From Octopus vulgaris (Eukaryota): DNA of 64,000 nucleotides. A program made the translations under genes and the position numbers. The stretch spans positions 3,162,001-3,226,000 of the forward strand of contig OX597834.1 in the NCBI GenBank assembly GCA_951406725.2. The letters are read 5' to 3'. Each line of letters starts with the position of its first letter. Positions within the stretch are counted from its first letter, which is position 1. The notes beneath the pieces are model-generated. The model saw only the letters and a program-made list of their open reading frames with translations, was not told where the DNA came from and did not search any database. Shown here piece by piece: positions 3,598 through 62,065 of this stretch.

Positions 3598-4002
3598 TGT
3601 ATATATGGAGGTAGGTTGGTAAGTGTGAGTGTTTATATGTACATACATACCTATGTATATATGTGTCTGTATTCACATATGTATTCATACATATATGTAT
3701 GTGTGTGTTTCAATGTATATTTATGTATACATGCATATATGTGTGCGTATGTATGCATGTGTGTATGTCTACATGTGTGTTTCAGAGTAGATGGAACATG
3801 TGGAAGTGAGAGACCCAGGAAGTCATAGGATGAAGTGCTAAAGAACGACCTCAGGTCACTGAGCCTTTTGGGCAAGATGACAAAGGACCGGGATGCCTGG
3901 TGCCTTGTTGTACTGAAGAAGGCCCATACCCTGCAGCAGAAGTGTTAAGACCGGTCCTTCTGGTAGTGTAAAGCATTCGTTGCAGTGCCATGTAAAAGTG
4001 CC

Positions 4003-4340
4003 CATGTGGTGCCTCATAAAAGCACTCATGGTTGTGCCCCCATGTGGTGCCATGTAGCAGCACCCATGTGGTTCCATGTAGCAGCACCTATGTGGTGCCT
4101 CATAAAAGCACTCATGGTTGTGCCCCCATGTGGTGTCATGTAGCAGCACCCATGTGGTTCCATGTAGCAGCACCCATGTGGTGCCTCATAAAAGCACTCA
4201 TGGTTGTGCCCCCATGTGGTGCCATGTAGCAGCACCCATGTGGTGCCATGTAGCAGCACCCATGTGGTGCCTCATAAAAGCACTCATGGTTGTGCCCCCA
4301 TGTGGTGCCATGTAGCAGCACCCATGTGGTGCCACATAAA
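4003..4340. repeat. 86-bp minisatellite, about 4 copies (built from ~21-bp ccatgtggtgccatgtagcagcac subunits)
   Basis: gcctcataaaagcactc recurs at 4011, 4097, 4183 and 4269. Confidence 0.9.
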
Positions 4341-4494
4341 AGTGCCTGTGCAGTGCCATGTAAAAACACACAGTCCACTCGGTAAAGTGGTTGGCATTAG
4401 GAAGGGCATCCAGCCGTAGAAACCTTACCAAATCAGGCTGGAATCTGGTGCAGCTCCCCCAGCTCTGCTCAAACTGCCCAACCCATTTGGAAGA

Positions 4495-4782
4495 GCATCC
4501 AGCTGTAAAAATCATGCCAAAACTGACCTTGCCTGTGCTAGTGCCATGTAAAAAGTCCACTCTGCTGAGGGGTTGGTGTTAGGAAGGGCATCCAGCTGTA
4601 AAAATCATGCCAAAACTGACCTTGCCTGTGCTAGTGCCATGTAGAAAGTGCACTCTGCTGAGGGGTTGGTGTTAGGAAGGGCATCCAGCTGTAAAAATCA
4701 TGCCAAAACTGACCTTGCCTGTGCTAGTGCCATGTAGAAAGTCCACTCTGCTGAGGGGTTGGTGTTAGGAAGGGCATCCAGC
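4495..4782. repeat. 93-bp tandem repeat, 3 copies, derived from the RTE-tail SINE
   Basis: gcatccagc recurs at 4495, 4588, 4681 and 4774. Confidence 0.9.
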
Positions 4783-4924
4783 CATAAAAAACCCTGCCAA
4801 AACAGACACAGTAACCTGGGGTAGTCTTCTACCCATCCAACCCTTGCATGCACGGAAGACAGACATTAGACGATGATGATGATCACGATCATGATGGTGA
4901 TGATGTACATGTGTGTATGTATAC

Positions 4925-5864: not shown

Positions 5865-7005
5865 ATTTGGTTAGAAAGTAATTCCTGTTGCATTTCAAGA
5901 TTGCAAAGGTACAAATGTTTCTTCAGTCTTAATTAACATATTTAAACAAGATAATATTTCCCCTCGTTATTGCAAAGAAACAGGTGCAGGCATGGCTGTG
6001 TGGTAAGAAGCTTGCTTCCTCACCACATGGTTCCAGGTTCAGTCTCCCTGAGTGGCACCTTAGGTAAGTGTCATTTACTGTAGCCTTGGGTCGACCAAAG
6101 CCTTGTCAGTGGATTTGGTAGATGGAAACTGAAAGAAGCCTGTCATATATATATATATGTATGTATATTAATGTGTTTGTGTTTGTCCCCCCACCACCAC
6201 TACTTGACAACTGGTGTTGGTGTGTTTACATCCCTGTAACTTAGCAGTTCAGCCAAAGAGACAGATGGAACAAGTACCAGGATTATAAAAAATAAGTCCT
6301 GGTATTGATTTGTTTGACTAAAACCCCTCAAGGTGGTGCTCCAGCTTGGCTCTGATCAAATGACTGAAACAAGTAAAGGAATGAAAGAATAAAGATAATC
6401 CCATCTATTTGGCAAAATGCTGATTCCTTTGGGTGAAGTTCTTCAGGTTTCCAACCGAAGAAACACTCAATATCCATTTTTAACCTCTTCACAATTGATA
6501 AACCATTTTCTGTCCAAATAAATTTGCAGGAATCTGAGAAAAGATGTCAGTGAAATGGAGCGAGGCCAGGAGAATAAGGAAATTGAGGCAAAACTCCCAT
6601 ATTTAGTGCCATAACCGCTTCCGGAGTGATTCGGACAGTATATTTCCTGGCATTGGCATGCAAGAGCACCACCACTTCATACCTGACCAATGAGGGAGGC
6701 TTTTTCTGCAAATTTTTGTACAATGCTTCCGGTTGATGAAAATATTTTTCAGCTTTAAATGTTTCTTTTTCATTTAAGACTTCTTGATCAACAAAGACCT
6801 TCAGATCCCAGCAAACACAGAGCATAAGATTTCCAAGAGTAGTCTTGGTCGAGAGATTGGTTCTCCTTTTTCATTGGCTGCTGACCATTGTTCTTTTCTC
6901 TCTCCCTGTTTATTTCCTCGTGTTCTCTTCTGTCGAAGAGCATAGGCTCGAAACGTAAAAGACTTTCTCATCAATAATGCAACAGGACTTTCTTTCCAAC
7001 TTAAT
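5865..7005 (-). mobile_element. Deleted mariner fossil with a nested SINE (5983-6393) and a nested HHR-bearing fragment (about 6840-6975)
   Basis: TIR-like ends (ttggttagaaagtaattcctgttgcatt / aatgcaacaggactttctttccaac); remnant motifs LLHANAR and PYSPGLAP. Confidence 0.7.
6925..6962 (+). ncRNA. Degenerate hammerhead-like motif (A6U core)
   Basis: CUGUCGA A GAGC AUAG GCUC GAAA CG UA AAAGA. The same family occurs at 31610-31645 and partially near 8435. Confidence 0.4.
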
Positions 7006-17928: not shown

Positions 17929-19493
17929 CAGTTGCGGCCAAAATGTTCAGAACGGCATTGTTTTCGTCAGAAAAGTAGGTATAAGTTTTTATCAAAGTTG
18001 TTTTATATTCTATAATTTTCACAGACAATAAATACAATATTAATTGTTATTGTCTGAGATTTTGGTGTTATTTGAGAGGATAATACAAAAGTTATGGATG
18101 ATTTAGTGATTTACTGCAAAACCCATGGCGGCCAAAATGATCAGAACGGTTGAAAAAATAACAAAATATTCAAAAATGTCAGAAAATACTGGAATTATTT
18201 AATATTTAGTGTGAAGCCCTTTAGCTTCAATCACAGTCTGACATCTTCAACTGCATGAGGAAATTAAATTTTCAATTTCTTGCTGGGTGATCTTATTCCA
18301 TTCTTCCTGAAGGGCATTCCATAATTGCTCAGTTGTTTTAGGATTTCTGGATTTCGAACGTTCTCAATAACCTTTTCAGTCTTGAGGAAGTCCATGACCA
18401 CCTTAGCCTTGTGACATGGGGCATTGTCCTGCATGAATATGGGTGATCACTTAGTTGAATTTCTCAGCACAGGCAAGACATGATTTTTTACAAGTTGTTT
18501 ATAAACTCCTGCATTTAACTTTCCATGTAATTGCACCAAAGGGCCCACACCATCTCCAGATATCATTCCCCAAACCATGACACTTCCTCCACCGAATTTA
18601 ACACTAGTCTTAAGGCATTTAGGCAACAATTTTTCACCTACTTTTCTACGAATGTACCTTTTCCCATCTGAGCCAAATAACATAGACTTAGATTCATCAC
18701 TGAAATGCACCGTTTGCCATTTTTCTTGAGACCACAACACATGTTCGATTGCAAAGGTAAGACGACACTTTTTATTCTTGGAGCTGATCAGTGTCTTCAC
18801 TGCAGGTGCTCTTGCTTGTAGGTCATGTTCAACTAAACGACGAGACACAGTTTTTCGAGATAAAGTTTTCTTCAATACAATGCTCATTTTCCGAGAAACA
18901 GCAGCAGCAGTTTTAAATCTGTCCTTTTTAACCAACTTTACCATAGCACGAGCTTCTCTCTTGGTCGTTTTTCTTGGCCTACCTGTAAACTTTCTTGCTT
19001 CACATGACCCACAATCATCGTAGACCTTAAGAATACCGTGTACAACACTTTTTGACTTGTTAACAATCTTTGCAATAGACCCAATACTTAAATTATCCTT
19101 CTTTCGAAGCTTAATAATCTGCTGACGAATTGGTAACAGAGTAAGTGGCATTATATTAACAAATTACACTGCAGATATTCTTACTAATGTTTAGTAAAAG
19201 AACCGTCACGTAAACAAATTCAAAACATTAGAGATCGCCGGTTAAATATACTAAGACACGGAGTAAAAGCAACCGTTTTGATCATTTTGGCCGCCATGGG
19301 TTTTGCAGTAAATCACTAAATCATCCATAACTTTTGTATTATCCTCTCAAATTACACCAAAATCTCAGACAATAACAAATAATATCGTATTTATTGTCTG
19401 TGAAAATTATAGAATATAAAACAACTTTGATAAAAACTTATACCTACTTTTCTGACGAAAACAATGCCGTTCTGAACATTTTAGCCGCAATTG
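17929..19493 (-). mobile_element. Tc1-like IR-DR transposon, 1565 bp, 224-bp TIRs, TA TSD
   Basis: TIRs at 17929-18152 and 19270-19493, each carrying two gcggccaaaatg(t/a)tcagaacgg direct repeats; TA on both sides. Confidence 0.95.
18199..19151 (-). pseudogene. Tc1 transposase pseudogene
   Basis: HTH, GRPRK, VHFSDES and GGGSVMVWG are intact. A premature stop at 18447 precedes FMQDNAPCH, and a deletion/frameshift lies near the catalytic E. Confidence 0.92.
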
Positions 19494-21117: not shown

Positions 21118-22549
21118 ACTTTTTACCTGTTTAAAGCATTCTCATAAATTTCTCCCAAACATCCGTTCTTGTTTTCAAACTTTTGCTTAGCCCTTGCTTC
21201 ATACGTTCTGACTTATATAAAGCTTCTTTTCCATAAGTCCCAAGTTACTCAAATGGTTAAAAAAAAAATAGAATTGAGAATGTGTATCATATGGGGTGCC
21301 AGGGAACTGTAACCTGTGCATCAGATGTGAAAGGCAAATGGTTCACCCCAGCATCAAGCCACCACTGAAATCACAGCCTCACAAACGATGGGGACAATTG
21401 TTTCATGCTGCCAACAAAGCACGCGGAGTTCTGTTCTTGATTCAACGGTCATTCGGAATGCTCACAGCAGCCATATTCCTACCACTCTATGTCACGCTGG
21501 TGAGACCCTTATTGGAGTACGGGATTCAAGCCTCTTCTTCTTATCTCCTCAAAGACATACAGCATCTCGAAAGAGTCCAGAAGCTGGCTACCCGCATGGT
21601 TCTTGGTCTTAAGAATTTGTCTTATGAAGAAAGGCTGAAGACGCTCGACCTTTATTCTCTAGAAAAACGACGACGCTGTGGTGATCTCATTCTTGCTCAC
21701 AACATCATAAACGGAAAGTGTAACCTCTCGAAGGAGCTGTTCTTCACTCCTGCTCCAGAGCATCGGCTGTGGGGTCATTCCGAAAAGCTCTGTCTGCGAC
21801 GATTTCATCTTAATCGAAGGAGAGGGGCTTTCTCCGTCCGGATTGCGGATCCGTGGAATAAGCTGCCGGACGAGATGGTGAAGATGCTGACGACCGCTCG
21901 GTTCAAAGTCTCCCTTGACCACAAATGGCCTGAACTCTTTACATGAACACCCTCCCTGTACATAACTCCATGTTCCCCCACATGGCCTTGCTTTTTGCTT
22001 TTTGAGCCAAAAAATTAACTAACTAACTTTGCCTGTCCAAAGAATTTTCAGTTTTTTTTTTTTTTTTGTCCTGAACGTCCATTCTTGTTTCCAGACTTGT
22101 TTCAGTCAGCCCTCGTTTCATACGTTCTGAGAAACATAAGGCTTTCCTTTGACAAATTCCAAATCACTCCAATGGTCGAAAACAATGCCTAGATGCCAGA
22201 GAACTATGTTCTGTGTATCAGATGTGACGGACAAATGGTTAACCCCACCATCAGGCCCCTGTTGCAACCACAGCATCACAAACTATGGAGACAATTGTTT
22301 GACATTTAAGACTTTTGCCTGTCTAAAACATTTCCATAGCTTTGCCCTAAAAATCTGTGCTTGTTTTCAGGCTTTTAGTCAGCCCTTGTTTCATATGTTC
22401 TGGGTAACATAAAGCTTTCCTTTTGCAAGTCTCAGATTACTTTAGCAATTTAAAAATATTTGGAAATTTGGATCACAAATGATGCCTGAACATCAGGGAA
22501 ATCTGCCTTGTGCAACCCATGTGACACCCACGACAGGTAAAAGGGTTAA
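21118..22549. repeat. Degenerate ~285-bp tandem repeat (3 units) split by a CR1 insertion
   Basis: Units start near 21118, 22026 and 22311 (actttt.cctgt...catcagatgtga...gacaattgtt); the array ends aagggttaa. Confidence 0.7.
21404..22028 (+). mobile_element. 5'-truncated CR1-clade LINE (ORF2 C-terminus open to 21946, (TAAC)n tail)
   Basis: LYVTLVRPLLEY..LERVQKLATRM..LSYEERLK..LEKRRRCGDLI..WNKLP. Confidence 0.9.
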
Positions 22550-23599: not shown

Positions 23600-25105
23600 A
23601 AAGATAACGCTTCATCACCTCATCCCATATCTTCCTGGGTCTACCTCTATCACATGCTGCCTCCAAACTTAGAGATCAGCACTTCTTTACCCAGCTGTCC
23701 TCATCCATATGCATCACATGACTGTACCAGCACAGTAGTCTCCCTTTCACATCACATCTGATGCCTCTTATGCCTCACTTTTCTCTCAAGATGCTTATAT
23801 TCTATTGGAACATGCACATTGACATTGCACATCTAGTGCAGCATACTGGCTTCGTTTCTCTCAAGCCTACACACTCCTTGGCTGTCACCGCCCATGTTTC
23901 ACTGCCATGTAGCATAGCTGTTCGCACTCAGTCATCATGCAATCTGCCTTTCACTCTGAGGGAAAGGCCCTTTGTTGCCAGCAGAGGTAGGAGCTCTCTG
24001 AACTTTGCCCAGCCTAATCTTAATCTCACAGATACGATCTCGGAGCATCCACCTCCATTACTAACTTGGTCACCTAGATACCAGAAGCTATCTCCTACCT
24101 TTAGCTTGCCGCCCTGGCAGTTGATGGAGTCTATTTTCAGCATTTATTGTACCTATCCACCTTCCACATACAGAAATTAGTTTCCCTGTTAACCTTCCTC
24201 TGATGTTGCTGCACCTATGTATTCAAAGCTCACATCAGGTGCTCTTATGAGTTTCTACCTACACCTTTTTCGACAGGTTGGGCAGGGCTATCCACCTGAG
24301 AGGATTTGTGATTTGTTTGCCTTCCTATTTACTATGAGTTTGGTTTTTGCTAGGTTAACTCTAAGGCCCTTTCATTCTAGACCTTGCTTCCTATACCTGG
24401 AACTTCTGTAGTTCAGGTAGTGATCCAGCTATGAGAGCAAGGTCATCAGCATAGAGGAGCTCCAAGGAGCAGCTTGTCTTGAATTCCTCTGTTATTGCCA
24501 GGAGGACTTTGATGAACAAGAGGGGGTTGAGGACCAATCCTTGGTGAACCTTTACTTGTACCCTGAATTTTTTCCATGTACTCATTGCTAACCTTTACCT
24601 TACTGGTAGCATCCCTGTACAAGGCTTGTACAGCTCTCACCAACCACTCGTCTATCCCTGGTTTCTGCATTGACCACCAGATAATGGATTGGGGGATCTC
24701 TGTCAAAAGTTTTCTCCAAGTCAGCAAAAGCCAAGTACAGAGGTTTACCTTTGGCTAGGTATTTCTCCTGCAACTGCCTCACCAGAAACATAGCATCAGT
24801 GCTGCTTCTACCTGGCACAAAACTGAACTGCATTTCATCTAGACTACCTCTCTCCCTGATTAGTTGGGCTACGACCTCCTCCATAACTTTCATCACCTGA
24901 TTTAACAATTTGATATCTCTGTAATTATTTCTACCTAAGGCATCACTTTTACCTTTATAGCAGTTGACTATGGTGCTGCTACACCAGTCTTTGGGTATGG
25001 CTTGCATGAACCACCTGATTTACAATATTGGTGGCTGGACCATAACCCACACTGCCAGATATTTTAAGAATTTCAGCAGTGATTCCTGATGGGCCAGGTG
25101 CTTTC
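23600..25105 (-). mobile_element. RTE-clade LINE fragment (RT domain, decayed)
   Basis: NYRDIKLL, QFSFVPGRSSTDAMF..LQEKY..LAFADLEK, HQGLVLNPLLF and LLYADDL. Confidence 0.9.
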
Positions 25106-28458: not shown

Positions 28459-30026
28459 TATACATTTATGTATAAATCTATGTGTGTATTTAAACTTGCG
28501 TATATATATATGTATACATGATCATAAGGTTGGGTTTCCAGTTCTTGGACCTAGAAACTTGATGTCCTTCAGCAAGATACTTTTTTTTCACATTATCCCA
28601 GTTTACTCAACTGAAAATGGTGCTGGGGATGATCTCTCTTTCTCTCCCTACCTACCTACCCACACCAACAGCAGTTTTCAGGCAATGATGGGGGACAAAC
28701 AGATGTGCACATGCACATGTGCACACACATATGTGCACATGCATGCATACATATATGGGCTTCTTTCAGTTTCCGTCTACCAAATCCACTCACATGGCTT
28801 TGGTCAGCTTGAGCCTATAGTAGAAGACACTTGCCCAAGATGCCATGCAGTGGGACTGAACCTGGAACCATATGGTTGGTAACCAAGCTCTTACCACACA
28901 GCCACACCTGCACATATGCTAATGAACTTAATTCATTATCTAGTATAACACCACCTCCACCACCAACTTGAAGCTAAATTCTTCAGTTCCTCACATCAAG
29001 GACCATAAATAAAAGGGGTGAGGCAGGTGCTGTCGTCTAGCTCCACTCAAATGAATAAATAAAGAAGACCCAGCAAGCCAAGTGGGGCTGTAACCATAGC
29101 CTATTCCAGTACAGCATAACCTGTCCATTTAAGAATACCCTTCAATCATTGGGCGATAAACTGTGCTTGAGAAGACCTGTTGAGCCAAGTGAAATCATTG
29201 TCGTGGCCAATGCCAGTGCCACCTGACTGGCTCCCATGCCAGTGGACCGTAAAAAGCACCATTCAAGCGTGGTCATTGCCAGTGCCGCCTGACTGGCTCC
29301 TGAGCCTGTGGCACATAAAAAATACCATTCGAATGTGGTCAATGCCAGTGCCGCCTGACCGGTTCCTGTGCCAGTGGCACGTAAAAAGTACCCACTACAC
29401 TCAAGGAGTGGTTAGTGTTAGGAAGGGCATCCAGCTGTAGAAACCTTGCCAGATCAGATTGGAGCCTGGTGCAGCCTACTGGCTTGTCAGTCTTCAGTCA
29501 AACTGTCCAACCCATGCCAGCATGGAAAGCGGACGTTAAACAATGATGATGAAATCGTGATTGGTTTCTAAGTATTATTGATTGATTTTATCAGACATGT
29601 GATGGCTGCAGCAGCAGCAGCAGCCGTGTTTGTATTATTAATGATGGCTCCACTAAAACCTCACCCAGCTTATCAGAACGGCAGGAAGGTAACACCTGGG
29701 TTTTCAAATTACCTTGGCATCATTGCCTACACAACCATGCAGTGAACAGAGGAAGAAAAATACAATAAAACCATAAAAAGGTAATCACAGCTGGCCACAT
29801 TGTTTGATGAGGATCAGTCCATTATCACCACCACCCCTCCTGCCTCCCTCACTCTCACTTTCTCTCTCCTCCCCTCCTCTCTTTGTCTTCTACAGTTTGT
29901 GGGGTGGTGGGGTAGTGACCATCCTTAAGTCATTGGCTCTAGAAACTGTGTGAATAATTTATGAGTCATGTCAAGACTAATGTGTGTGTGTGTGTATGTG
30001 TCTGTATGTATATATACATATATATG

Positions 30027-33631: not shown

Positions 33632-33689
33632 CACGTATGTATGTATATATTACTGATCTATAATAGCTATCCCTTTGATAGGTCTCCTT

Positions 33690-34020
33690 GTATGAAGTAC
33701 AATTGTGTTGTCTGTAGGATGAACCCACAGGTTAACTGTAAGGTTAGAAATGTAGTGTATAGCTTACAATTAACTGAGGGATGGTGCAGAAACATGACAA
33801 CTACCTACATTGGAGAGACTGCACGCAGCATAGGAGAGCGAATAGATGAACATTGGCAAGAGCTCAAAGAAGGGCTCTATCAACATGCTCGGGCAGAACA
33901 CAGAGGCTCAAATAATAGCATAGAGGTTAAAGTACTATTGACACATACCGTATGGCCTGACATAGTTTCAGAAAATATTGGAAACATATGTCACTCATTT
34001 ACAACTATTGATCACCTGAT
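33690..34020 (+). mobile_element. Penelope-like GIY-YIG endonuclease fragment
   Basis: NCKVRNVVYSLQL...YIGETARSIGERIDEH...LYQHARAEH. Confidence 0.8.
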
Positions 34021-34549
34021 ATCAAGACAATCACACACGTATGTACCTATGTGCGTGTGTGTGAATAAGTGGTGATGAGCTTCTGTCAGTTTCCATTTAC
34101 TAAATCCATTTACAAGGCTCTAGTCAATCCAAGACTATGTCTGCACCTCTAAACCAGGGCATAAATGTCAAAAATTCTCACCAAGTGGACCTTTACTAAG
34201 TGAAGTTACTAATCTCTGGTCTAGAATTTCCATAATTAAATTAGTTAATTAACTGTTTTAATTAATTACATGTTTTGTGGTGGTATATGGCTTAGTGGCA
34301 AAGATGTTGCACTCACAATTGTAAGATCAATTCCCAGACCACACATTTCCTTTTGCCCCAGTCCACTCAGCTGTAACTCTGCAATGGACTGGCATCCTAT
34401 CCAGGGGTAATGTTGTAATTTCAGTTACTTATATACTATAGAAATGAGGATAAGTCCTGGGGCTCACAACGGACCTAATTATTATGCTTTATAATTAAAC
34501 AATTACAAATAGCCTATAATTAAAGTGTATTGTTTGTTTATCTCTTCAG

Positions 34550-34722
34550 GACTACCAGCCGTTACTGTGCCAACTCGATTATCTGCCAAGGGATTACCTC
34601 TTGGAATACAATTAATTGGCAAATGTTTTGGTGAACAGGAACTTCTGTCAGCAGCAAAATGGATAGAAGTGGAGAATAACTTCCCGTCTTTGGACTTGTC
34701 ATTCCTAGATGGTGACAGCTGA
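34550..34722 (+). CDS. QRSL1: QRSL1 last coding exon H (LPAVTVP...GLPLGIQLIG...LDGDS*)
   Basis: tcttcag acceptor; GLPxGxQLIG amidase C-terminal motif; TGA stop. Confidence 0.95.
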
Positions 34723-34768: not shown

Positions 34769-35789
34769 TAATTGCTGTTTTGAGTTTTATCTAATTGTGT
34801 TATCATGGTTAATTTTCTTCTTTGGTGATTATTGGAAACTCAATCTCATATGTTATCTATGTATGTGTTGTGTGTGTTGTGTGCGTGTGTGTGTATGCAT
34901 ATGTGTGTGTGTGTGTGTATGTTGTATGTATATATGTGCATATGTATGCCTGTCTTAAGATTATATCAAGTGATACAAATGCAGACAAGCACTATAGCAA
35001 AACTGCAGATAAACCTCCAGAATAATCTTATGTGCTCATGTATCATCGTCATCATCATCATCATCATCGTTTAACGTCCATTCTCCATGCTGGCATGGGT
35101 TGGACGGTTTGACTGAGGTCTGGAGAGCCAACGGCTGCACCAGGCTCCAGTCTGATCTGGCAATGTTTCAACACCTAGATGCCTTTCCTAACGCCAACCA
35201 CTCCGAGAGTGTAGTGGGTGCATTTTACGTGCCACTGGCACAGGAGCCATTCAGATGGACATAGCATCGATCATGTTCGGATAGTGCTTTTTATGTGCCA
35301 CAGGCACTGGGGCCAGTCAGGGGATACCGGCATTGGCCACGTTCGGTTGGTGCTTTTTATGTGCCACCAGCACAAGAGCCAATCAGGGGGTACTGGTATC
35401 GGCCATGTTCGGTTGGTGCTTTTTACATGCAACCAGCATGGAAGCCAGTCAGGCAGACCTGGCATTGACCACGTTCAGATGGTGCTTTTACATTTTTTTA
35501 TGTGCCACCAGCATGCGAGACAGTCAGGGGGCTACAGCTAAGATATTGGTTTTTACTTGACTCAACAGAGCTTCTAAGCATATCATATCACCCGATGCAT
35601 CATCGGTATTCTTAACAGGGCCAGACATGCGTGGTTGCAATCTCACTTTAGTTCCCGGGTCTTCTCAATCACAGCGTATCTCCAAAGGTCTCAGTCTCCT
35701 GTCAATGTCTCTGTGAGGCCCAATGTTCGAAGGTCATGCTTCACCACCTCATCCCATGTCTTCCTGGATCTACCTCTTCCACAGCTTCC

Positions 35790-47565: not shown

Positions 47566-47613
47566 GTATCAAATGAAGTAAATGAAAAAAATGAAAAACA
47601 GGATGCAAAGGAT

Positions 47614-47712
47614 TATGCGGTACATATGTTTCAGGCTTTATTGAACAACTTATTCTTATATCAATGCATAATTGATATAACAGGTAGATCAAAAGCCTTC
47701 TTCAGCCGCGTA
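47614..47712 (-). ncRNA. Type I hammerhead motif with intact core and long stem II
   Basis: UACGCGG CUGAAGA AGGCUUU..AAAGCCU GAAA CAUAUG UA CCGCAUA. Confidence 0.8.
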
Positions 47713-48092
47713 CAATTGCTACACCAAAGACTTGTATCACATTATAAAAGGTTTGAGAAAAAGTTTGAGAAAAAACCGAGTTTCATTAGGAAAGTAAATC
47801 CTCATAGGCGTACATGGTATTGCGAGACTCCAAAACAAATCGTCCATACCGTTTTTATATATATATATATATATACTCTTTACTCTTTTTACTCTTTTAC
47901 TTGTTTCAGTCATTTGACTGCGGCCATGCTGGAGCACTGCCTTTTAGTCGAGCAAATCGACCCCGGGACTTATTCTTTGTAAGCCCAGTACTTATTCTAT
48001 CGGTCTCTTTTTGCCGAACCACTAAGTGACGGGTACGTAAACACACCAGCATCGGTTGTCAAGCAATGCTAGGGGGACAAACACAGACACAA

Positions 48093-50845: not shown

Positions 50846-51975
50846 CAGGGGGTTGAAGAAAATAATGGAAACACCATAAAATTTTGAGCAAATTTATTTT
50901 ACTATGGGGTAGGACCACCTTTGGCAGTAATTACAGCTTGAATTCTACGAGGTATGGACTCGTACAAACTTTGAATTGTTTCCAATGGAATTTTTGTCCA
51001 TTCTTCAGCTAAAACAGTCTCCAGTTCTTGTAGTGATGATGGTGGAGGATATCGACGCCTTACTTGTTTTTCTAAAATGCACCATAAATGTTCAATAATA
51101 TTGAGATCTGGGGACTGTGGTGGCCATATAAGATGTTCAACTTCACTAGAATGTTCCTTGTGCCATTCAGTAACAACTTTAGCTGTGTGAATTGGTGCAT
51201 TATCATCCTGAAGGATTGCATTTCCCTCCAGAAACAGTTCTGCTACTATAGGATGAATTTCATCAGATAAAAAGCTTAAATAGTCTTGACTATTAATTCT
51301 ACAATGAAGGAAAACCATTGGGCTGGCAGATTTCCAAGATATAGCTCCCCAGATCATTACAGATCCTCCTCCATGTTTAACAGTTGGAAGAAGGCAGTCT
51401 GGGTCAAATGCTTATTTTGGCTGTCTCCATACGTATACTCAGCAGGTGGTCGGAAATAATGTAAAGGATGACTCGTCCGAGAAAATAACGTTCTTCCATT
51501 GTTCTAGGAACCAATTCTGTAGGTTTTTACTCCACTCTAAATGCTTTGCAATATTTATTTTTGAAAGTAATGGTTTTCTGATTGCAGCCCTCCCATGAAA
51601 TCTGGCTTTGTGCAGCTCCTGGTGAACAGTTTTCATAGAAACTTGGTTCTTGAGGTGGTCATTAAGCTCTGCAGTAATTTTGTGATCTTTTCTAACAATT
51701 CACATTAGAGTCCTACGTTCCCTATCTGAAAGTTTCGGTTTTCTTCCGAAGTTTTGTTCCGATGAGGAGGTTTTTCCCTCTTTCTCAAAGGCTGTCATTA
51801 CTTTCAAGACACTACTTCTTGATACACCAAACTTTTCAGCTGTTTTCGTTATGCTAGCACCAACCATAGGAGCACCAGCAATTTGACCGCTTTGAAAGTC
51901 CGATAGATCTGTCATTTTAATTATCTTTTTCTGATGATATTTGAAAAGAAACAGCAATTTTAGCAAAATTGTATA
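50846..51975 (-). mobile_element. Tc1-like transposon with a frameshifted transposase (51915 to 50902)
   Basis: MTDLSDFQSGQIAGA.., GRKPKL, IFSDES, LQDDNAPIH and WPPQSPDLNIIEHLW. Only one TIR is clearly visible. Confidence 0.9.
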
Positions 51976-55610: not shown

Positions 55611-55928
55611 TTGTCCAGCCATACACATTTTTCTCCCACATTTCTACAACTGGAAGCCCTTCCTAACGCCAACCACTCCAAGGGTGAAGTGGGTGCTTTT
55701 TGCGTGCCACCAGGAGAGGAGCTAGTCAGGCAGCACTGGCATCGACCATGCTTGAATGGTGCTTTTTACATGTCACCAGGACGAGAGCCAGTGGCAATGA
55801 CCACACTCGAATGGTGCTTTTTATGTGCAACAGGTAACAAAAGCCTTGTGAGTAGATTTGGTAGATGGAAACTGAAAGAAATTGTGTGTATGTGTGTGTA
55901 TATATATGTGTGTATATATATGTGTGTA

Positions 55929-55964
<36 letters not shown>

Positions 55965-55970
55965 AATATA

Positions 55971-56016
<46 letters not shown>

Positions 56017-56263
56017 CAATACAAATGTATTACTTTCCAGTAAAATAAAGCCCCATAAGGGAAGAATTATACATATAAAAATAGATGAGTGGTACAACAA
56101 GGCACTGATATTTACTGGAAAATAGCAATCGATATAAATACGATGCTATTGTATAGCTTCACTGCGTATGTACTAGTAAAGATGTGTGTGTGCAACAAAC
56201 ATGAAAAACATTTGTCTTACCTCTAGGAAGAACATTCAATAAATGGAAAACCTAGAATCGGAT

Positions 56264-56336
56264 AATGCAGGACCGGTTTCTGACTCTTCAAATACGTTTG
56301 ACAACATAAATTTGATTAGTCTTCATCAGCTGCATT
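56264..56336 (-). ncRNA. Type I minimal hammerhead motif with GUC cleavage triplet
   Basis: AAUGCAG CUGAUGA A GACU..AGUC A GAAA CCGG UC CUGCAUU, with a perfect 7-bp stem I. Confidence 0.82.
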
Positions 56337-56842
56337 TACCTAGACAATATTTCAAATGTTGCCACATCAATGCCAGTATACTTGCCTGAACCCAGTTCCA
56401 GTCTTGGTGTGACAGTGTTTCTACAGCTGGATGCCCTTCCTAATGCCAACCACTTCAAGAGTGTAGTGGGTACTTTTTATGTGTCACTGGCACAGGGAGC
56501 CAGTCAGGTGGCACTGGCATCAGTCACAGCTACGATTTCACTTAACTCAACAGATTCTTTTATTGTTTTACTTGTTTTTGTCATCTAACTGTGGCCATGC
56601 TGGAGCACTGCCTTTAGTCAAACAAATCAACCCCAGGACTTATTCTTTGTAAGCCTAGTAATTATTCAATTGGTCTCTTTTACTGAATTGCTAAGTTACA
56701 AGGATGTAAACAAACCAACATTGGCTAGCTGGGAGCTGTCCAGACTCCAACAGTCTGTTGTGGCATGGTTTCTATGGTTGGATGCCCTTCCTAAAGACAA
56801 CCACTTTACAGAGTGTGCTGGGTGCCATTTACATGCCACCAT

Positions 56843-59104: not shown

Positions 59105-62065
<2,961 letters not shown>

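Follow-up and report, generated by a model that had tools for sequence, protein, structure and literature searches.

A probable Penelope-type hammerhead motif in a clipped copy of a high-copy octopus repeat, with an A/U polymorphism beside its core

Hammerhead ribozymes of Penelope-like elements (PLEs) and of retrozymes are already known in thousands of copies in many animals, including molluscs. In the giant squid genome, for example, 235 hammerhead matches were counted (PMC6962438). The pLTR hammerheads of PLEs (Cervera and de la Pena 2014, PMC4209133) are characterized by one additional base separating A9 from a conserved G10.1-C11.1 pair and by a palindromic helix III. Their minimal motifs have a stem I of 4-5 bp, and the motifs did not cleave as monomers and cleaved little as dimers. 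The non-LTR retrozymes of metazoans (Cervera and de la Pena 2020, PMC7229834) are AT-rich, non-coding units that measure about 400 bases and carry a type I hammerhead; they occur in thousands of copies, some of them head-to-tail. Retrozymes have recently been argued to derive from pLTRs, to be non-autonomous and to include many dispersed monomers; in vitro, 8 of the 9 dimers of Xenopus retrozymes remained uncut (Li, Clavereau and Pollet 2026, bioRxiv 10.64898/2026.07.22.740005). In the current literature, solo pLTRs and retrozyme monomers stand at opposite ends of a single continuum. Given retrozymes as pLTR derivatives, the question of pLTR or retrozyme is partly one of naming.

In this work we focused on a motif of this kind in a 64-kb stretch of microsatellite-rich eukaryotic DNA from Octopus vulgaris, hereafter the window. 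A first-pass annotation had recognized a hammerhead on the minus strand at 56336-56264, and both identity and strand were borne out, with a type I topology and all core bases there. We conclude that it is probably a type I hammerhead of the PLE kind, carried by a solitary, clipped monomer of a high-copy repeat that derives from a Penelope-like terminal repeat (pLTR). It resembles the PLE pLTR hammerheads (PMC4209133) in being of type I with CUGANGAH and the G-C pair, in its longer helix II, 6-nt palindromic helix III and expected dimer dependence, and in lying, as most of them do, in a single dispersed copy. It differs in an extra base before GAAA, a stem I of 6-7 bp and a 40-nt stem II with an internal loop; moreover, the available text of that paper has no cephalopod among its 56 motifs. 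Metazoan retrozymes (PMC7229834) probably share with this family the features listed above, whereas the present copy is solitary, clipped and provided with the PLE extra base. The 'monomer' class of the 2026 preprint (bioRxiv 10.64898/2026.07.22.740005) likewise comprises dispersed single pLTR-related units co-occurring with PLEs; its definition of 'active' requires two consecutive units, which are lacking here, and no mollusc is sampled in the portion available. We found no description of octopus hammerhead-bearing repeat families in the literature searched, most subscription papers lying outside its reach, and the family may already be catalogued in repeat databases, which were outside the search. 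Lunse et al. reportedly treat PLE hammerhead variants and may describe the core variant reported below.

Table 1. Coordinates of the hammerhead motif, its repeat unit and neighbouring features in the window
Feature	Position	Strand	Remarks
Multi-exon amidase gene	192-34720	+	Pfam Amidase on three exons; last exon about 34549-34720
Penelope-like GIY-YIG endonuclease remnant with upstream CxxC linker	33671-33940	+	directly after (TA)n
(TA)n microsatellite	55899-56015		abuts downstream end of the unit
Hammerhead-bearing repeat unit	56016-56391	-	clipped at upstream (56391) end
14-bp inverted repeat	56031-56124		56031-56044 / 56111-56124; closes hairpin at downstream end of the unit
Stem I, 5' strand, AAUGCAG	56336-56330	-	7 bp in this copy
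Catalytic core CUGAUGA	56329-56323	-	C3-U4-G5-A6-U7-G8-A9
Extra A between A9 and G-C pair	56322	-	PLE hallmark; consensus CUGANGAH (PMC4209133 Fig. S3)
Stem II, whole	56282-56321	-	GACU/AGUC, 2x2 internal loop, then long extension
Stem II, first 4 bp, GACU / AGUC	56321-56318 / 56285-56282	-
Extra base before G12	56281	-	A in this copy
Core GAAA	56280-56277	-	G12-A13-A14-A15.1
Palindromic stem III ACCGGU	56272-56277	-	contains CCGG, 56276-56273
GUC	56273-56271	-
Predicted scissile bond	56270/56271	-	3' of C17
Stem I, 3' strand, CUGCAUU	56270-56264	-
Unrelated abundant dispersed repeat	56383-56527		starts about 56383-56397; replaces upstream part of the unit

Parts and recognition of the motif

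The 7-bp stem I, CUGAUGA, CCGG and GUC named in the annotation were each located on the minus strand, and the cleavage site predicted from the consensus, between 56271 and 56270, is where it had been placed. The UCAAAU/AUUUGA extension of stem II was also found (56315-56310 / 56293-56288), and beyond it the minimum-energy fold lengthens stem II still more, the extension comprising 5 + 6 bp together with a bulge of 2 nt and a loop of 4 nt. Stems I and II both form, with pair probabilities of 0.66-1.00 (in stem II, 0.99-1.00 over its first 4 bp). The motif carries the type I core CUGANGA...GAAA...UH, and its ends lie in stem I. That it is the best preserved of its kind is arguable: its core is intact, but so is that of a second motif at 47709-47617.

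A descriptor that asked for the core, a palindromic stem III and at least 4 bp in each of stems I and II, composed after the motif was known, gave 2 matches in the 64-kb window and none in 60 dinucleotide shuffles. The 77-nt stretch of the motif folds with a z-score of -3.66, equal stability being reached by 1 of 200 shuffles. The best Rfam match was Hammerhead_HH9 (RF02275), with 23.6 bits and E 0.001 in a 301-base search, in which the core, the stem I sequence and the GGUC/CUGCA junction align. This score does not reach the gathering score of 52, and the motif differs from RF02275 in having no stable stem III, in its long stem II and in being repeat-borne. A search of the whole window against Rfam showed no hammerhead among 150 of the 180 matches listed; the microRNA matches that it returned were rejected as microsatellite artefacts.

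A chance match in AT-rich DNA could be suspected from the late composition of the descriptor, and a related 23-base gapped pattern did give 6 matches in metagenome (5 loci) and viral (1 locus) contigs. These 6 were dismissed as chance because they lie in GC-rich prokaryote-type coding DNA without stem I or the cleavage triplet, and at none of these loci was there a blastn match to the island or an Rfam hammerhead. Given the absence of matches in 60 shuffles, the Rfam hammerhead match and the presence of the motif throughout its family, we consider coincidence next to impossible.

Two further hammerhead-like families were observed in the window. The first, at 47709-47617 on the minus strand, belongs to a unit of about 47567-47853 that has a (TA)n tract on either side. 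Its stem II, of 7 bp and with a long loop, has an A-U pair at the base; stem III is an 8-nt palindrome, the site is GUA, and stem I measures only 4 bp. It gave no Rfam hammerhead match, and its unit has in common with the island at 56016-56391 only a T-rich 14-mer downstream. The other, minimal family is found on the plus strand at 6932, 8431, 19619, 31615 and 44207, with an extra A, a 4-bp stem II and a GAAACGU palindrome. Most of its copies deviate at A6 or nearby; in the 19619 copy CUGAAGA is intact and stem III is altered.

The repeat unit and its family

The island of about 350 bp described earlier beside (TA)n was measured at 376 bp, and the (TA)n tract is probably the insertion target of the unit. 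Non-LTR retrozymes are characterized by non-coding units of about 170-400 nt with less than 45% GC; the 376 bases kept of the clipped unit here are AT-rich with stops in all six frames, and they fold better than their shuffles (z -3.23, 0 of 100 as stable). The 64-kb window holds no second copy of the island and no upstream continuation of the family beyond 56391. Since loose ends in the family continue 30-70 bases past 56391 and this part is missing from the window, the present copy is clipped upstream. The repeat that takes its place has 10-21 other matches per position in the window and its own loose ends at 56397. At the downstream end, many family copies stop near 56090, and contig depth drops below 56100. 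Only 55 bases of the unit are kept upstream of the motif, with no ORF for reverse transcriptase plus GIY-YIG within them, and the 17 open codons found there gave no alignment to the one PLE protein tested (P0001). The locus does not carry two consecutive hammerhead units.

A splice-donor-like GAG/GTAAG was observed at 56221/56220 on the minus strand, 50 bases past the predicted cut, and introns can occur in PLE terminal repeats. No joint matching this site was seen among 15 of the 28 joints listed.

The annotation had not recognized the island as one clipped copy of a high-copy family. Parts of the island are present in 20 of the 24 sequencing runs listed, from 12 studies and under six organism labels, with shares of up to 0.49; none of the runs holding it is on record as RNA. 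The contigs of 4 of the 24 runs (X1, X3, X11 and X20) were aligned to 56016-56430 at 80% likeness. This yielded 1361 matching contigs in X1 and 1409 in X3, both DNA-type, and 108 and 4 in the other two runs, which are only guessed to be RNA; these counts also cover contigs that belong to the flanking repeat. Over the motif, depth adds up to 60,000-100,000 against about 35-60 for single contigs, i.e. about 1,200-2,300-fold, which roughly suggests a family of ~10^3 copies, contig depth not being copy number. In the DNA runs most matching contigs are less than 95% alike to the present copy, and among the variants listed this copy differs from at least 90% of X1 depth at no fewer than 5 positions. 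These private substitutions indicate ageing in place. In X11, depth relative to the DNA runs amounts to 0.036-0.039 over the flanking repeat and to 0.003-0.025 over the island, where it dips at the motif; contig depth neither ranks parts nor measures expression, and this dip decides nothing either way. One X11 contig (56239-56326) and one X20 contig span the predicted cut site, and molecule ends did not pile up in the contigs, which are not suited to reveal such an accumulation.

Joints running from the end (56382-56391) to the start (56016-56019) of the island occur in at least 6 contigs of X1 and at least 9 of X3, and opposite-strand joints in at least 3 cases, among 15 of the 28 joints listed. 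The end-to-start joints give their two sides but not the letters in between, and set neither unit length nor array form. Among the loose ends listed, (TA)n is present at the downstream end in X3 and X20, and not in the X1 entry there. Tandem and inverted insertions with a microsatellite bias, a trait of autonomous PLEs, are therefore found in the family, in few contigs and among 15 of the 28 joints listed.

These data also bear on whether the family might be a canonical, currently active non-LTR retrozyme, with tandem units of about 400-450 nt and, like those of mussels, abundant circular RNAs, of which the present copy would be a dispersed monomer. The kept 376 bases with the 30-70-base upstream part resemble mussel repeats of 350-390 bp in the descriptions available, head-to-tail joints exist, and the island folds better than shuffles. 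The geometry of the motif, with a stem I of 6-7 bp and a first stem II segment of 4 bp, is closer to that of canonical retrozymes than to that of minimal PLE motifs. Furthermore, axolotl retrozymes with better cleavage in the dimer offer examples both of a single-pair stem III with a palindromic tetraloop and of a mismatch at the stem II base (PMC7229834). However, a base added after A9 and a long stem II characterize PLE motifs and not canonical ones, end-to-start joints are few among those listed for the 1361 and 1409 contigs (though contigs may break at (TA)n), and copies end beside (TA)n instead of running on. We therefore hold a canonical active retrozyme to be unlikely and retain the PLE-type assignment.

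The window contains one mapped gene, the amidase gene, which we take to be GatA/QRSL1-like. Its last exon lies about 600 bases beyond the remnant of a Penelope-like endonuclease, itself 22 kb from the hammerhead and unlinked to it. The remnant shares 54% identity, along 68% of its length, with a protein that carries a CxxC linker and, C-terminally, GIY-YIG motifs (E 1e-10, 1 match among 16 candidates); its Pfam GIY-YIG match is weak (E 0.007, below the cut-off). It appears Neptune-like when read against the description available in PMC8557442. Its presence shows the co-occurrence of such PLEs in this genome, not to linkage with the hammerhead unit. Fragments of other mobile elements were seen at 18447-19163, 24600-25019 and 50902-51411 on the minus strand and at 21278-21946 and 59693-61639 on the plus strand; by Pfam they comprise Tc1-like transposase domains as well as pieces of a reverse transcriptase and of zf-RVT, and the 21278 frame presumably represents a LINE C-terminus. 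Tandem arrays with units of 86, 93, 66 and 66 bases were found at 3985-4334, 4489-4807, 29202-29392 and 35217-35489, respectively, and look assembled from pieces of abundant dispersed repeats.

Pairing, folding and the base beside the core

The PLE-type reading implies that the palindrome of one copy pairs with that of another, and the computed folds are consistent with this. All energies are nearest-neighbour values, without tertiary contacts or Mg2+. In the monomer the core CUG mispairs with the CGG of stem III with a probability of 0.93-0.95, and the active-like monomer lies at +7.2 kcal/mol relative to the best fold. ACCGGU is self-complementary between two copies (duplex -8.3 kcal/mol), and the two-strand double hammerhead reaches -51.3 kcal/mol compared to -45.4 for two monomers, a gain of 5.9 kcal/mol. 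The palindromic helix III thus favours the dimer in these folds, as in PLE hammerheads, and the modelling suggests that cutting probably occurs only when two copies pair. The earlier proposal to assay a dimer is supported by these folds. The accompanying rule, that a lack of Mg2+-dependent cleavage at GUC would refute the motif, is too strict, since published PLE-type and Xenopus motifs often remain uncut and absence of cleavage would not disprove hammerhead ancestry.

The same folds bear on a single ribozyme adopted by the host, like vertebrate HH9/HH10, which would process a host transcript at this locus. HH9 is indeed the best Rfam match and stem I is long. Yet the HH9 score is under half of the gathering cut-off, stem III cannot form in the monomer (computed folds), the motif sits in a high-copy repeat, of which the present copy bears private substitutions, and the only mapped gene has its last exon about 21.5 kb away on the opposite strand. 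Such an adoption is thus very improbable.

The feature that sets the motif apart lies at the base of stem II. The annotation had reported an A.A apposition there in place of an R-Y pair, and the apposition is present: no R10.1-Y11.1 pair lies directly between A9 and G12 in this copy. It is not a simple loss of that pair, as the G-C is intact one step out. PLE motifs normally have an unpaired base between A9 and G10.1, and we therefore read the A.A as the usual PLE extra A facing a second inserted base. The PLE arrangement of C11.1 followed directly by GAAA is interrupted by this one base; otherwise the motif fits the PLE consensus CUGANGAH G...C GAAAN palindrome NU H at every point. Within the family, 56281 is U in 42%, 58% and 56% of contig depth (X1, X3 and X11, respectively) and otherwise A, and the single X20 contig also has U. 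A U at this position creates an A-U pair with 56322, so that 42-58% of family depth does have the R-Y pair next to the core. The A.A form, holding about half of family depth, is not a one-off lesion. In PMC4209133, AGAAA occurs in 1 of the 56 entries of Fig. S3, in a row that cannot be told from the text, and 3 of the 56 motifs aligned there, those of D. willistoni, M. japonicus and Latimeria 2, have A-U as the basal pair of helix II.

In all, the motif varies at 7 or more positions among 40 of the 68 variants listed. Apart from the change at 56281, two of those listed fall in unpaired loops. The U.G at 56306/56295 becomes C-G in 85-96% of family depth and an A-U becomes G.U in X20 only, pairing being kept in both cases. 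Variants at 56318 and 56336 break terminal pairs, unless compensated by variants outside the 40 of 68 listed; at 56336, the outermost base of stem I, U accounts for 43-53% of depth. The core bases and the palindrome show no variant among these 40 of 68. The difference in conservation between the core and the downstream part (1 of 31 against 23 of 178 positions, p 0.22, on the same 40 of 68) is not significant.

With two unpaired bases flanking the core, the A.A subfamily may be catalytically dead and amplified passively, in trans or alongside A-U copies, its ribozyme having no role. Naiad PLEs spread without a hammerhead, the role of which in PLE spread is called unclear (PMC8557442), and most of the Xenopus dimers cited above were uncut. 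On the other hand, about half of the depth is A.A, no core variant was seen among the variants listed, one axolotl family still cuts although its helix II has a U.U mismatch at the base (PMC7229834), and an extra A after A9 slows a viroid hammerhead only moderately. We regard a dead A.A form as possible but doubtful. It is a matter of activity and would fit with the PLE origin favoured here.

Proposed cycle and meaning for the family

If the repeat is of PLE type, the two ACCGGU palindromes of transcripts running through head-to-tail copies would join in a stem III of 6 bp. This intermolecular stem would free the core to cut after GUC. Cutting would trim the precursor to a unit-length RNA, perhaps circularised, which a PLE reverse transcriptase with a GIY-YIG endonuclease (Neptune-like and TA-targeting) could then copy into (TA)n. 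The steps of this proposed cycle, a possible ligation among them, are modelled on published accounts. The present copy is most likely a passive remnant, having no partner within the window and a monomer fold predicted to be inactive.

The motif is an ordinary example of its kind save for the small variable feature beside the core, and the near-equal A/U polymorphism there is the useful part of the finding. In a more specific scenario, which we think quite unlikely, the family would be an active (TA)n-targeting cephalopod retrozyme mobilised by a Neptune-like PLE, in which A.A and A-U forms both cut, perhaps at different rates or in mixed dimers. In that case the two geometries would represent a new tolerated variant of the hammerhead core and, within one family, a natural test for an effect of cleavage rate on copy number. 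A comparison of cleavage rate with the copy number and age of the A.A and A-U forms would bear on the role of the hammerhead in the spread of PLEs.
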